DNA from: Desulforegula conservatrix Mb1Pa
GTDB lineage: Bacteria > Desulfobacterota > Desulfobacteria > Desulfobacterales > Desulforegulaceae
Direction of reading: 5' to 3'
Assembly (NCBI RefSeq): GCF_000426225.1
Contig: NZ_AUEY01000092.1
Location: 1 to 13,985, forward strand
DNA length: 13,985 nucleotides
A model generated the notes under the pieces. That model was given only the letters and a program-made list of their open reading frames with translations. It was not told the origin of the DNA and did not search any database. The translations under genes and the position numbers were made by a program. Below, piece after piece: positions 10,895 to 13,985 of the stretch. How positions within the stretch are numbered: the stretch's first letter is position 1; every line of letters starts with the position of its first letter.

Positions 10895-11462
10895 GTAATA
10901 CTCCTCTCTTGAATTCTGGTTTGTTTAAGTTTCAATCAAATTGTTATCATCCGAATGATTTGGACAGGCCTGTATAGTCAGGCCTGATTTTTCCTTGGAT
11001 TGGAAACCGATTTAGTTGCTTAATTAGCCCGGTTTTTTATGTGAATAAGACTGATGCTCGACGCCGGTTTTATCGTCTGTAAAAAAAATCAAAATCCAGG
11101 AAGGAGATTGAGGTTGTTTTATGCAAACGGTGTTTTGTTTACAGACAATAATAAACTTAGCAATACGCATGCCGGATTAAAGTGAATGAAGCAATTTATA
11201 CTTTTTAATCATAAAAAGCCATACTAAAGCCCGCTTTTATAAGTCTGTATAGGCTATGGGCATATTCGGAAAAACGTTGCGAATAGATTTGTCACGTTGT
11301 TTTGTCGCCATATGGTTATTTATTGTCGTATTATTAGACAGAAGAGGGTTGAGATATTTGGAATAATAGAATGCTATTTTCCATAAAGCGATTAAATCTC
11401 TAATGAGATGTAAAGGTGTTATGGGTAACTGAAAAGATTGGATGCAGGATCAATCAAGTCCT

Positions 11463-11493
11463 TTTTAGTTTTTTTTGCGAGTCCATCAGATAC
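11463..11493 (+). repeat. ~30-nt intergenic motif, copy B (see 535-564)
   Basis: cctttttagttttttttgcgagtccatcagatact. Confidence 0.45.
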
Positions 11494-11502
11494 TTCAGGT
11501 TT

Positions 11503-11524
11503 CCGGCCTGCGCCGGAATGACGG
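11503..11524. repeat. Near-palindromic GC-rich core, copy 2 (see 1221-1241)
   Basis: ccggcctgcgccggaatgacgg. Confidence 0.45.
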
Positions 11525-11550
11525 TAATAGGACTGTCAGGATTGATAAAT

Positions 11551-11583
11551 AAAAAAAGCCCTGCCTTTACAGCAGGGCTTTTT
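11551..11583. terminator. Bidirectional intrinsic terminator downstream of dsrC copy 1
   Basis: AAAAAAA-gccctgc-ctttaca-gcagggc-TTTTT. Perfect 7-9 bp GC stem with an A-run on one side and a T-run on the other. It terminates minus-strand dsrC and any plus-strand transcript. Confidence 0.7.
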
Positions 11584-11623
11584 AAAATCTGATATTCAAA
11601 CAGATTCAACTAAAACAATCTGG

Positions 11624-11944
11624 CTATACGCAACCGGTTGGTTTTGGGAGACCAGCCATTTTGCAAGCTCCTTTTCCTGGTCCTGAAGGGAACAGTTCAT
11701 AGATGTGCTTAAGCTTGAAACCTGTGAGTTTTGAAAGAACGCGAACCATTGGTGCAATGCCGTTCTTCTTGTAGTAATCCTGAAGAACGTTAATTACCTG
11801 CCAATGTTCGTCAGAAAGAGTTTCGATACCTTCTTCCTTTTTGCAGTAATCAACCCACTCTGCAGTGTAGGTATTGAAATCTTCGAGGAAACCATCCTCA
11901 TCAACTACGAACGTCTTGCCCTGAAAATCTACATTTGTTGCCAT
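11624..11944 (-). CDS. dsrC: DsrC (dissimilatory sulfite reductase gamma subunit, sulfur-carrier protein)
   Basis: 106 aa ending …IAPMVRVLSKLTGFKLKHIYELFPSGPGKGACKMAGLPKPTGCV. Both conserved C-terminal-arm cysteines (CysB 11 residues before CysA, CysA penultimate) are present, which distinguishes true DsrC from TusE. RBS AAAGGAGAG 5 nt upstream. Only 12 nt separates it from the upstream IscA-like gene. Confidence 0.93.
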   Translation of the reverse strand: MATNVDFQGKTFVVDEDGFLEDFNTYTAEWVDYCKKEEGIETLSDEHWQVINVLQDYYKKNGIAPMVRVLSKLTGFKLKHIYELFPSGPGKGACKMAGLPKPTGCV

Positions 11945-11956
11945 GATCTCTCCTTT

Positions 11957-12280
11957 TTAGTTGCTGCCGCATGAGCTTCCGCAGCTGCAGCCAGAGCATC
12001 CGCCACTTTCAAACTTCATGGGCGAGTTCACAGAAAAACCGTCCGCTTCTGTGAATTCAACGGATATTGGCTGAGCAGCAGCAAAAAACTCTTTTTCAAT
12101 TATATAGGTTATATCTTCTATTTTTATGACCTCGTCGCCTTCGCTGAGTTCATCAAAAGCCATAGCTATCTGTGGGCCACCACATCCTCCGGAATGGAGA
12201 AAAATTCTTACAGGAGCCGCGTCCCTGTTTTCAAGAAAAATTTTTATCTGTTTTGTGGCAGCTGGTGTAACAGTTAACAT
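11957..12280 (-). CDS. IscA/HesB-family (A-type Fe-S carrier-like) protein with a C-terminal Cys/Gly/Ser-rich extension
   Basis: 107 aa from ATG 12278-12280 (RBS AGGAAA 7 nt upstream; the track's longer ORF begins at a TTG with no RBS). Aligns to IscA: LTVTPAATKQIKIFLENR ~ ITLSDSAAARVNTFLANR; HSGGCGGPQIAMAFDE ~ TSGCSGMAYVLEF; tail …ESGGCSGCSCGSSCGSN replaces the canonical CGCGESF. Confidence 0.62.
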   Translation of the reverse strand: MLTVTPAATKQIKIFLENRDAAPVRIFLHSGGCGGPQIAMAFDELSEGDEVIKIEDITYIIEKEFFAAAQPISVEFTEADGFSVNSPMKFESGGCSGCSCGSSCGSN

Positions 12281-12545
12281 TTTGTTTCCTGATATCGGAT
12301 AGTTGTTAAAAACCTTGGCACCAGGGTGCTTCAGGAATGAATCCAAGAACTCTTACACTATTTATTTCTGAATGCAAACAATATATGCCTTTATAGCTCA
12401 TGACTCTTTGAAAAAAATGAATAACCCGGATAATTTAAGTGTTTGTCTTTCTAAAAATGGCCACTGGCATTCAAATATGTATTTAAGAATCATTCATCCA
12501 TTACCATGCCCGTGTTATTGAATACGGATTGAGCATCTATCGGTT

Positions 12546-13604
12546 TTATTCCATAGGAACAGTGCCGTCCTTGCTTTTTTTCATTTTTTCCATAAATGCG
12601 TCCGGGGATAGCTTTAAGACTTTTTTCCTTGCATCTTCTTCCTCTGCTTTTACCTTGGCATTTCTTTCAGATTCTTCAATTTTGATGGCTTCTGTATCAA
12701 ACTCTTTTATCAGCTTTGCTATTTGAGGATCTTCAGGCATTTCAAGGGCAAGTGTAATATTTTCAAGTGTACAAGATTCGGGGATATTTTTTTCATTCAA
12801 ATGTATTTTTAACATTCCGATACTTTCGCCGGACATGCTGTTTTGCACCATATAAGTATTTTTGATAAGTCTGGGCTCGAAGCTCAAATGCCGTCCATGC
12901 CCTGCTATTGCTACAAAAACTTTTTCCAGATCATTCATTTCCAGATAGTTTTTTGTCGCGTCGTCTCCCAGATGGGAAAGCAGAATTGAAAAATCTGCTT
13001 TCTTGTTCATTTCGGAAAGGGCTTTCTGCAATGCTCCATTCATGTCTCTATTAATTGAAACTTCTTTATTGATTGCTTCATCAGTAAAATATATGGAAGG
13101 AGTGATGCCTGTAATGCCAACTTTTAATCCGTTTAAATTAATGATTTTATATGGTTGGATGATATTGCCTTCATTTTTGCTTTTTTCTTCAGGTAAGCTT
13201 ATATTGGCTGATACAAAGGGCAGTGAATTCTTTTTCGCAATCCCAGTGAAAAACTGTTTGCCAAACCCAAGATCATAATCACCGATATTGACGGCGTCGT
13301 ATTTCATTATACCCATTGCCGTTGCTATGGTTTTGGCCCTTAGCTCGCCCGGGTTTTTATTTTTAAGAAACATGTCACCGCAATCAAGAACCAGAACGTT
13401 TTCGTTTTCCTTGCGGATTTTTTCAATAAATGCCGCCCTTCTTGATATACCGCCCTTTCTAGGGCTGCAACCACATGGCTCAATGGATCCGGCTGTGTCA
13501 CCTGAAAACAAAATAACAAGATCATTAGACTTTGCATACGACGGGGCTTGAAAAATTAATAAGCATAAGGCTGACAGCGCGGACAGGATAATCATTTTTT
13601 TCAT
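12546..13604 (-). CDS. Secreted 5'-nucleotidase/SoxB-family metallophosphatase N-terminal domain only, with degenerate active-site motifs and a K/E-rich C-terminal tail
   Basis: 352 aa. Signal peptide (…IFQAPSYA/KS). Aligns motif-by-motif to the UshA N-domain: ILFSGDTAGS (vs NDHHGH), VLDCGDMF (vs SGGDIN), AVNIGDYDLGFG (vs AIGNHEFDN), LPFVSANISL (vs PLLSANIYQ), LSHLG (vs ATHMG), IAGHGRH (vs VGGHSQD). An EPCGCS insert follows motif I. RBS AGGAGAAAGG. GC content is visibly lower than in neighbouring genes. Confidence 0.62.
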   Translation of the reverse strand: MKKMIILSALSALCLLIFQAPSYAKSNDLVILFSGDTAGSIEPCGCSPRKGGISRRAAFIEKIRKENENVLVLDCGDMFLKNKNPGELRAKTIATAMGIMKYDAVNIGDYDLGFGKQFFTGIAKKNSLPFVSANISLPEEKSKNEGNIIQPYKIINLNGLKVGITGITPSIYFTDEAINKEVSINRDMNGALQKALSEMNKKADFSILLSHLGDDATKNYLEMNDLEKVFVAIAGHGRHLSFEPRLIKNTYMVQNSMSGESIGMLKIHLNEKNIPESCTLENITLALEMPEDPQIAKLIKEFDTEAIKIEESERNAKVKAEEEDARKKVLKLSPDAFMEKMKKSKDGTVPME

Positions 13605-13670
13605 GGAAGACCTTTCTCCTATAATATGTTTTGTTAGCCAAGTGAAGGAACTTGGTTGCAGCTCTCCCGA

Positions 13671-13712
13671 ATAAAAAAGGATATTTTCCGTTTATAGAAA
13701 AATATCCCTCTT
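13671..13712 (-). terminator. Intrinsic terminator of dsrC copy 2 (minus strand)
   Basis: On the minus strand: ggatatttttc-tataaacg-gaaaatatcc followed by TTTTTT (plus-strand A-run 13673-13678). It sits 40-80 nt after the dsrC-2 stop. Confidence 0.65.
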
Positions 13713-13752
13713 TTAATTTAAATCCGAGCTTTCATGAACAGATTTTCTTAAC

Positions 13753-13985
13753 TATACGCAACCTGTCGGTTTTGGAAGTCCGGCCATTTTGCAAGCTCCC
13801 TTTCCTGGTCCTGACGGGAACAGTTCATAGATGTGCTTAAGCTTGAAACCTGTGAGTTTTGAAAGAACGCGAACCATTGGTGCAATGCCGTTCTTCTTGT
13901 AGTAGTCCTGAAGAACGTTAATTACCTGCCAATGTTCGTCAGAAAGAGTTTCGATACCTTCTTCCTTCTTGCAGTAATCAACCCA
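13753..13985 (-). CDS. dsrC: Second dsrC copy (3' 77 codons; the 5' end lies beyond the window)
   Basis: Stop at 13753-13755 (cta on plus). Translates …VDYCKKEEGIETLSDEHWQVINVLQDYYKKNGIAPMVRVLSKLTGFKLKHIYELFPSGPGKGACKMAGLPKPTGCV, identical in protein to copy 1 over the visible part. 13822-13985 is ~99% identical in DNA to 11688-11851. It is not in the ORF track because no start codon lies in the window. Confidence 0.9.

Follow-up and report, generated by a model that had tools for sequence, protein, structure and literature searches.

UshA-like proteins with a C-x-U motif, in which U is selenocysteine (Sec), form a known family that has been listed as 'COG0737, UshA-like, CxU' (PMC2398784), as 'UshA-like protein, CxU' (PMC9312934) and as 'UshA-like protein, NF041198, CxU' (PMC13188914), each time without a function being given; the last of these papers also places most prokaryotic Sec residues in redox sites. 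In the curated NCBIfam model of the family, NF041198 ('UshA-like (seleno)protein', UshA_like_PCGU), a degenerate metallophosphatase N-terminal domain is followed, at profile positions ~350-519, by a tetrahaem domain resembling cytochrome c554. Here we describe a haem-less relative from the sulfate reducer Desulforegula conservatrix (Desulfobacteraceae), encoded at positions 12546..13604 on the minus strand of a 13,985-bp stretch of DNA that is in its entirety one contig of this organism, and that we call the window. Judged by its sequence, the protein is a wrongly labelled 5'-nucleotidase that has kept the fold and lost the catalytic residues, and it is a cysteine (Cys) homologue of the selenoprotein lineage, not itself a selenoprotein. 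We propose, with a probability of roughly 0.55, that it works in the periplasm as a thiol (selenol-type) oxidoreductase built on a phosphatase scaffold put to a new use.

The open reading frame is complete, starts with an ATG preceded by an AGGAGA ribosome-binding site and encodes 352 amino acids of a UshA-like C-x-C protein. An exact-sequence look-up identifies the product as RefSeq WP_027360437.1 of D. conservatrix, named there 'bifunctional UDP-sugar hydrolase/5'-nucleotidase'; the name 'bifunctional metallophosphatase/5'-nucleotidase' was also seen in UniRef. Both names conflict with the absence of the catalytic residues and of the C-terminal domain, and the nucleotidase label is likely an over-annotation. 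Our literature search on Desulforegula found nothing relevant. Residues 1-24 (13533..13604; this and the following features of the window are on the minus strand) read as a Sec-type signal peptide, here in the sense of the secretion pathway, with an initial MKK, a hydrophobic core and a cleavage site between SYA and K. Homologues also start with signal peptides, and the secretion proposed in the initial annotation of this DNA therefore stands. In the AlphaFold2 (AF2) model this region is a helix (2-18) followed by a stretch of low per-residue confidence (pLDDT) at 19-24.

The fold itself is clear. Residues 25-292 (12729..13532) form a degenerate calcineurin-like domain of the kind found at the N-terminus of 5'-nucleotidases. 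The AF2 model, whose mean pLDDT is 87.9, matches CD73 in Foldseek with an E value of 4e-23, and the matches include E. coli UshA, 3IVD and other 5'-nucleotidase N-domains, at TM-scores of 0.68-0.72; phmmer against the 5'-nucleotidase sequences of the PDB gives an E value of 1e-13. The Pfam Metallophos model scores 19.7 bits, just under its gathering threshold of 21.5, so the fold that had been predicted is carried not by this profile but by the Foldseek, phmmer and NCBIfam evidence, which we consider to outweigh it; the refuting condition named beforehand, a lack of any significant Metallophos-family match, is for this profile formally borderline. The C-terminal substrate domain had rightly been called absent: Pfam returns no 5_nucleotid_C match in the 352-residue protein, whose chain ends after a helical tail.

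Residue equivalences were taken from an alignment with canonical relatives (P0012-14, P0020 and P0022), which read HTNDxH, DAGD, GNHE, SHxG and GHSHT at the successive motifs. Motif I, canonically N-D-x-H, survives as F33-S34-G-D36-T-A38-G-S40 (13485..13508), in which the aspartate is kept and the ligand histidine has become A38. Motif II (D74-C-G-D77, 13374..13385) keeps the bridging aspartate. In motif III, G108-D109-Y110-D111 (13272..13283) stands in place of G-N-H-E, the ligand asparagine having become D109, and the catalytic histidine of GNH[ED] is absent, its position being taken by Y110. The site-2 histidine is kept in S210-H211-L-G (12966..12977), and in G235-H236-G-R238-H239 (12888..12902; canonically G-H-x-H) H236 is kept while the second, site-1 ligand position is R238. 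The dimetal ligand set D,H,D,N,H,H,H/Q is thus incomplete, with D36, D77, H211 and H236 kept and A38, D109 and R238 replacing three of the seven. The substitutions that the initial annotation had listed for motif I and for GNHE are all present in this alignment, with two refinements: GDYD does replace GNHE but is not itself conserved, the family pattern being G-[DE]-x-[ED], and in GHGRH H236 is in register but H239 is not conserved, the second ligand position being that of the arginine. Because site 1, the asparagine and histidine of GNHE and the C-terminal domain have all been lost, we conclude that the protein is very unlikely to be a nucleotidase, and nucleotide hydrolysis would not be expected of it; the earlier view of a repurposed metallophosphatase scaffold, made on these same losses, holds.

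Behind motif I lies the loop E42-P-C44-G-C46-S47 (13464..13481), with the codon of C44 at 13473-13475 and that of C46, TGC, at 13467-13469. It had been described as an EPCGCS insertion, a description that does not survive comparison, since canonical relatives also have IEP here, with a longer loop (IEPVPESDKYNPDLGG against IEPCGCSPRKGG). What had been missed is the nature of CGC: it is a C-x-U motif with Cys in place of Sec, as both NF041198 and homologues with an in-frame TGA reveal. In contigs L001, L002 and L003, a single frame runs through a signal peptide, (F/Y)SGDTLG(Y/H)VEPCG, TGA, and then SPKKGG(V/L)ARRA or QNKRGGLARRA. The TGA stands exactly opposite C46 in these three contigs and in L005, and a strong GGCCCGG[A/C]GGGCC hairpin, similar to a selenocysteine insertion sequence (SECIS), is common to all four ~20 nucleotides (nt) past the UGA. 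Since the TGC of our gene aligns with an in-frame TGA accompanied by this hairpin in its homologues, C46 corresponds to a selenocysteine, the residue found at this position in most relatives. The gene itself has neither of the two marks of a selenoprotein: its codon is TGC, and in the codon and SECIS comparison no SECIS-like hairpin was found downstream in the Cys loci (the window, L007 and L008).

Public gene calls hide this relationship. The homologues P0004-P0011, at 37-54% identity, start right behind the position of the CGC, and they belong to a total of 75 non-canonical representative relatives (also including P0030-P0060) that start just after the C-x-U site; a separate open reading frame of 46-50 amino acids is called upstream of such relatives in every locus inspected. 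This is what is expected if gene callers split the Sec forms at the UGA, and the Sec forms appear to be split systematically. Conservation of the CGC motif had been proposed as a check, and the motif is conserved: the survey of homologues shows C-x-C or C-x-U retained, and the Cys pair, together with the end of the tail described below, is conserved down to 37% identity. One relative, P0129 (326 amino acids), reads EPCGW, with a tryptophan at the Sec/Cys position (TGG against TGA/TGC), which may reflect a genuine substitution, an error of sequencing or recoding of the site. In the Desulforegula protein the loop lies between strand 1 and helix 1, which by the topology of the fold would put C44-G-C46 on its active-site face.

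How the protein relates to the curated family deserves some precision. NF041198 is its best curated match (E 4e-54, profile positions 8-271 of 519), and it has both the P-C-G-[U/C] motif, as P43-C44-G45-C46, and the features of the broad UshA-like C-x-U lineage, namely homology to the 5'-nucleotidase N-domain and an in-register C-x-C after motif I. Its score of 184.1 bits nonetheless leaves it outside strict membership, for which the curated cutoff is 275. The same is true of all haem-less relatives tested, whether Sec or Cys, which score 147-189 bits; among the forms scored, the cutoff is passed by P0015, P0016 and P0097, and the passing forms are tetrahaem. Four CxxCH motifs are found in each of P0015-17, P0021 and P0025-27, and none in the 352 residues of our protein, which thus lacks the tetrahaem domain. 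Curated models thus leave the haem-less clade uncovered, which is probably why its members bear a generic nucleotidase name. The second UshA-like selenoprotein family, NF049981 (CxxU), does not accommodate it either: the score is 67 bits against a cutoff of 140, the match covers residues 29-110 only, and the motif is CxC and not CxxC. In a rough neighbour-joining tree the Cys clade of our protein lies among Sec forms.

What replaces the haem domain is a conserved, helical tail rich in lysine and glutamate at residues 293-352 (12549..12728), ending in the motif LKLSPDAFMEKMK...VP. Sec homologues align to NF041198 up to profile positions 323-350, that is, to the linker before the haem domain; in the Desulforegula protein the linker helix runs on past the point at which the haem domain would start, and the conserved tail closes the chain. 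AF2 predicts confidently a long helix at 293-330, at the position of the inter-domain linker, and then a short one at 334-343, and the terminal motif LKxSPxxFxExMK...VP is conserved to 37% identity (P0001-P0011). The tail had been taken for a Lys/Glu-rich low-complexity sequence; its composition is as stated, but confident helices and a conserved end show that it is not low-complexity junk.

To see how the Cys pair is distributed relative to the catalytic motif, we turned to the family as a whole. An exhaustive profile search gave 389 representatives at E <1e-30, and 232 domains were realigned from retrieved proteins, the Cys-pair counts being limited to domains with the N-terminal part present; scans for further loci added one locus from genome contigs and two from metagenome contigs. 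The loop that follows motif I contains a Cys pair (CxC, CC or CxxC) in 60 of the 65 non-canonical domains and in none of the 35 canonical GNH[ED] domains. Among the relatives surveyed, the gain of the Cys pair is strictly linked with the loss of the GNH catalytic motif. The metal ligands behave differently at the two sites. In the non-canonical set those of site 2 are mostly kept (D77 in 95/142, D/E109 in 104/142, H211 in 110/142 and H236 in 108/142) and those specific to site 1 are lost, D36 being found in 20/65 and H38 in 5/65; position 238 is not a histidine in any of the common non-canonical classes and is mostly arginine, glutamine or lysine. Tetrahaem clades may go further and lose even site-2 ligands, as in P0015-17 (AFAD, GGKV) and P0025-27 (GMTNG, DxGQ), and EPCGC stays. 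Because the pair survives this near-total loss of ligands, we take the invariant functional element of the family to be the Cys/Sec pair and not the metal centre.

The second line of evidence comes from fusions. Six representatives of 50%-identity clusters have an N-terminal AhpC-TSA/Redoxin (TlpA/ResA-like) thioredoxin domain, with a CxxC of its own, fused to the C-x-C domain, and P0076, the one such fusion scanned against NCBIfam, also matches ResA. In P0048 two C-x-C domains share one chain with a DsbA-like and a cytochrome c554 domain, and the tetrahaem gene of L010-L012 is overlapped at its 3' end by a gene of the thioredoxin family. These thioredoxin-fold and cytochrome partners are periplasmic electron carriers. 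It is this recurrent fusion or adjacency with thioredoxin-fold and multihaem proteins, together with a Cys pair that outlasts the metal ligands, that makes us favour a redox-active dithiol, or selenothiol, as the working part of the protein.

From these observations we infer the following cycle. C46, a thiolate here and a selenolate in relatives, would attack an oxidised periplasmic substrate, and C44 would resolve the adduct, leaving a C44-C46 disulfide (a selenenylsulfide in the Sec forms) that a separate electron donor would then re-reduce. In other clades the donor would be built in, as the fused TlpA/ResA-like thioredoxin domain or as the tetrahaem cytochrome c. Beside the Cys pair, the site-2 residues that remain (D77, D109, H211 and H236) may bind a single metal or else an anionic substrate group. 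As for the substrate, our guess, drawn by analogy, is a sulfane-sulfur or chalcogen species such as polysulfide, thiosulfate or polythionate, or selenite; it is based on the physiology of the host, on SoxB as a relative that acts on sulfur, and on the precedent of MccSep/ExtKL, a periplasmic pentahaem selenoprotein of Geobacter that is a polysulfide reductase (PMC13510729). One can go a step further and imagine a new class of periplasmic reductases, in which the Cys/Sec pair has functionally taken the place of one metal of the ancestral dimetal centre. A chalcogen substrate, tetrahedral or chain-like (thiosulfate or polythionate, polysulfide, selenite, arsenate), would sit in the metal or anion pocket that is left and be reduced by the selenolate or thiolate. 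Arsenate reductases, which arose from phosphatase folds, offer a parallel. We hold this fuller version only tentatively, and consider it clearly less likely than the oxidoreductase activity as such.

A number of observations weigh against a thiol oxidoreductase. No electron donor is fused to the Desulforegula protein or encoded next to it. AF2 is less confident of the loop than of the rest, with a pLDDT of ~72 for residues 41-50. The neighbourhoods of relatives vary by clade, are mutually non-homologous in pairwise comparisons and give no consistent clue to a substrate. Of the products of neighbouring genes, neither DsrC nor the HesB-like protein carries a signal peptide, which places both in another compartment, and a terminator-like hairpin parts the upstream dsrC from our gene. 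Finally, two points favour the most serious competitor, a metal site. In the close clade of our protein, conservation of the Cys pair goes along with that of D36, D77, D/E109, H211 and H236; and selenocysteine is a metal ligand in some enzymes, such as [NiFeSe] hydrogenase and formate dehydrogenase.

According to this competitor, already suggested in the initial annotation as a Cys-ligated metal (next to a sulfur-binding role, which we regard as a guess), C44 and C46 would join D36 and D77 to rebuild site 1 beside site 2 (D77, D109, H211 and H236), giving a heterobimetallic or thiolate-bound centre for catalysis or metal binding. Besides the two points just given, it can draw on proximity in the sequence, since the Cys loop begins just six residues past the lost ligand position, and on the mention of possible metal-binding Sec in other families (PMC13188914). 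We nevertheless regard it as unlikely, if far from negligible. The Cys pair is kept in clades without D36, D77, H211 and H236, the P0025-27 and P0015-17 groups described above; position 238 is a conserved arginine or another non-ligand, so that the site looks more filled in than rebuilt; and the recurring thioredoxin-fold fusions suit a dithiol better. The persistence of the pair where nearly all ligands are gone, and the thioredoxin and multihaem partners, thus disfavour the metal and leave the thiol oxidoreductase as our preferred reading.

A SoxB-like, non-redox hydrolase acting on a sulfur compound (a thiosulfonate, for example) with a single retained metal and a purely structural Cys pair seems to us improbable. 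The SoxB model TIGR04486 does align over residues 50-303 with an E value of 1e-17, and the host is a sulfate reducer in which the locus is flanked by dsrC genes. However, with 63.6 bits the protein stays far below the cutoff of 550, it has neither a C-domain nor metal site 1 nor the catalytic histidine, profile scans of the window proteins found no sox genes, and a Cys with a merely structural role would not be expected to become a costly Sec in most relatives.

Even less credit can be given to a decaying pseudo-enzyme or non-functional relic, the outcome that had been named as fatal to a functional interpretation. In its favour are the lost catalytic residues and the lowest G+C content among the open reading frames of the window, a low value that had been spotted correctly (0.384, against 0.41-0.52 for the others and 0.437 for the whole window). 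Yet the ratio of nonsynonymous to synonymous substitution rates (dN/dS) is 0.13 and 0.07 against orthologues at 84% and 72% identity, and 0.13-0.32 for the tail alone. At 0.07-0.13 the gene is not decaying and is under purifying selection; its signal peptide and ribosome-binding site are intact, the CGC is conserved in homologues, the Cys pair and tail motif hold to 37% identity, and relatives maintain Sec with SECIS-like hairpins. Least plausible of all is a genuine bifunctional UDP-sugar hydrolase/5'-nucleotidase, which has for it the RefSeq name and a weak family-level likeness to UshA-type models, and against it the replacement of three of seven metal ligands and of the catalytic histidine, a Metallophos score under threshold, 42.5 bits on the UshA model where the cutoff is 600, and the absence of 5_nucleotid_C, the supplier of the phosphate-binding arginines and base-stacking residues.

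Turning to the surroundings of the gene, the order on the minus strand is the 3' part of a dsrC, a hairpin, our gene, a 265-nt spacer, a hesB-like gene, a complete dsrC and a terminator. The upstream dsrC copy (13752..13985) runs off the end of the contig and its translation ends in ...CKMAGLPKPTGCV*. It is followed at 13665..13715 by a terminator-like hairpin with a U-run (-17 kcal/mol in RNA folding, z -4.65), which suggests that our gene has its own promoter. The spacer (12281-12545, from our stop to the hesB-like start) shows no terminator in the scan and no Rfam match. The HesB/IscA-like gene (11957..12280, with its ATG at 12280) is the Cys form of IscA_HesB_Se (NF038090, 97.6 bits against a cutoff of 85); its product has GGCGGP where relatives have UxGP, and an unusual Cys-rich C-terminus, GGCSGCSCGSSCGSN. 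Cys versions of two selenoprotein families, our protein and this one, therefore adjoin. The second, complete dsrC (11624..11944; PF04358, TIGR03342) has a terminator-like hairpin downstream (11553-11583, terminator scan). The two dsrC copies form a 234-nt direct repeat (13752-13985 and 11624-11857), 96% identical and spaced by 2128 nt, and encode an identical protein over the 77 visible residues; with the contig edge falling within the upstream copy, this repeat is probably where the assembly broke. Beyond the dsrC terminator, and up to a Phenol_MetA_deg-like outer-membrane gene, lies an AT-rich region of ~690 nt (10936-11623; G+C 0.35 in 11001-11500) with no open reading frame of at least 80 amino acids and no Rfam match; the Rfam search of the window as a whole gave no match.

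The order dsrC, our gene, hesB-like, dsrC recurs in L007, where dsrC also flanks on both sides, and partly in L008, both close relatives at 72-84% identity; a hesB-like gene follows the homologue in L007, L008 and L009. At most, this context hints weakly at a connection with sulfur metabolism. We do not treat DsrC and the HesB-like protein as partners, because of their missing signal peptides, of the hairpin before our gene and of a recurrence confined to close relatives.

Among more distant relatives the neighbours are of other kinds. The Sec short forms follow two secreted proteins, one of ~215 amino acids without a family match and one of ~800-855 amino acids with a TGase_elicitor-like segment (L001 2138-6284, L002 2698-6912, L003 589-4708 and L018 855-5128). 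In L001, L003 and L018 the start of the C-x-U gene overlaps the preceding stop as ATGA, a sign of translational coupling, and the secreted pair with its TGase_elicitor-like member may work with the C-x-U protein or be its client. Tetrahaem forms end a cluster of BatA/VWA, a 749-residue protein, a protein of ~890-945 residues and DUF4159 (L010-L012 7288-10233; L016), and P0027, P0018 and P0021 have unrelated neighbours. We considered deriving a function from gene context and rejected it, the neighbourhoods of the clades not being homologous to one another.

The Desulforegula protein is a naturally Cys-containing, haem-less member of the family from a cultured sulfate reducer. As a Cys form without haem, it should be expressible in E. 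coli without machinery for Sec incorporation or cytochrome maturation, which makes the chemistry of the family directly testable through it. If a new class of reductases is indeed at work, this Cys form would be a tractable entry to a selenoprotein family orphaned since at least 2008. The gain of a Cys pair with the loss of GNH, together with the thioredoxin and cytochrome fusions, would make a clear example of how a hydrolase fold comes to serve redox chemistry. The survey has also brought out a clade that is misnamed in RefSeq and whose haem-less forms lack a curated model, most of the Sec members being truncated in gene calls.

Closely spaced redox pairs are known elsewhere: the C-G-C shuttle disulfide of Erv2p, CGC peptides that mimic protein disulfide isomerase, and the C-U of thioredoxin reductase. 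The likeness to our loop would be in the strained, reactive disulfides or selenenylsulfides that serve electron shuttling, in protein contexts that differ. MccSep/ExtKL resembles the family as a periplasmic, Sec-dependent redox enzyme of Desulfobacterota that has Cys-type counterparts and is fed through c-type haem, but its fold and family (NF040886) are unrelated and its catalysis takes place at a Cys-ligated haem, so that the comparison is an analogy only (PMC13510729). We accordingly rejected this unrelated pentahaem family as a functional assignment. SoxB (TIGR04486) is of the same superfamily and, acting on a periplasmic sulfur substrate, shows that the scaffold can serve sulfur chemistry; it is hydrolytic and keeps its dimanganese site and C-domain, whereas our protein falls far below its cutoff and has no sox context. 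With E. coli UshA and human CD73 (PF00149 + PF02872) our protein has in common the N-domain fold (E 4e-23, TM ~0.7) and the colinear order of the motifs, and with some bacterial members also the GGxxRR start of helix 1 and the IEP after motif I. CD73 also has a disulfide, C51-C57, in the loop equivalent to our Cys loop. Unlike these enzymes, our protein lacks the C-terminal substrate domain, has the site-1 ligands and the Asn/His of GNH replaced, and carries the Cys pair. The closest comparison is with the NF041198 family, with which it shares the degenerate metallophosphatase N-domain, the E-P-C-G-[U/C] loop at the same position and secretion. Where the curated members have a C-terminal tetrahaem c554-like domain, it has the conserved lysine- and glutamate-rich helical tail; where many members have Sec, it has Cys; and it keeps the site-2 histidines that some tetrahaem members have lost. 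The family is thus already known, and the haem-less, tailed architecture is an uncurated variant of it.

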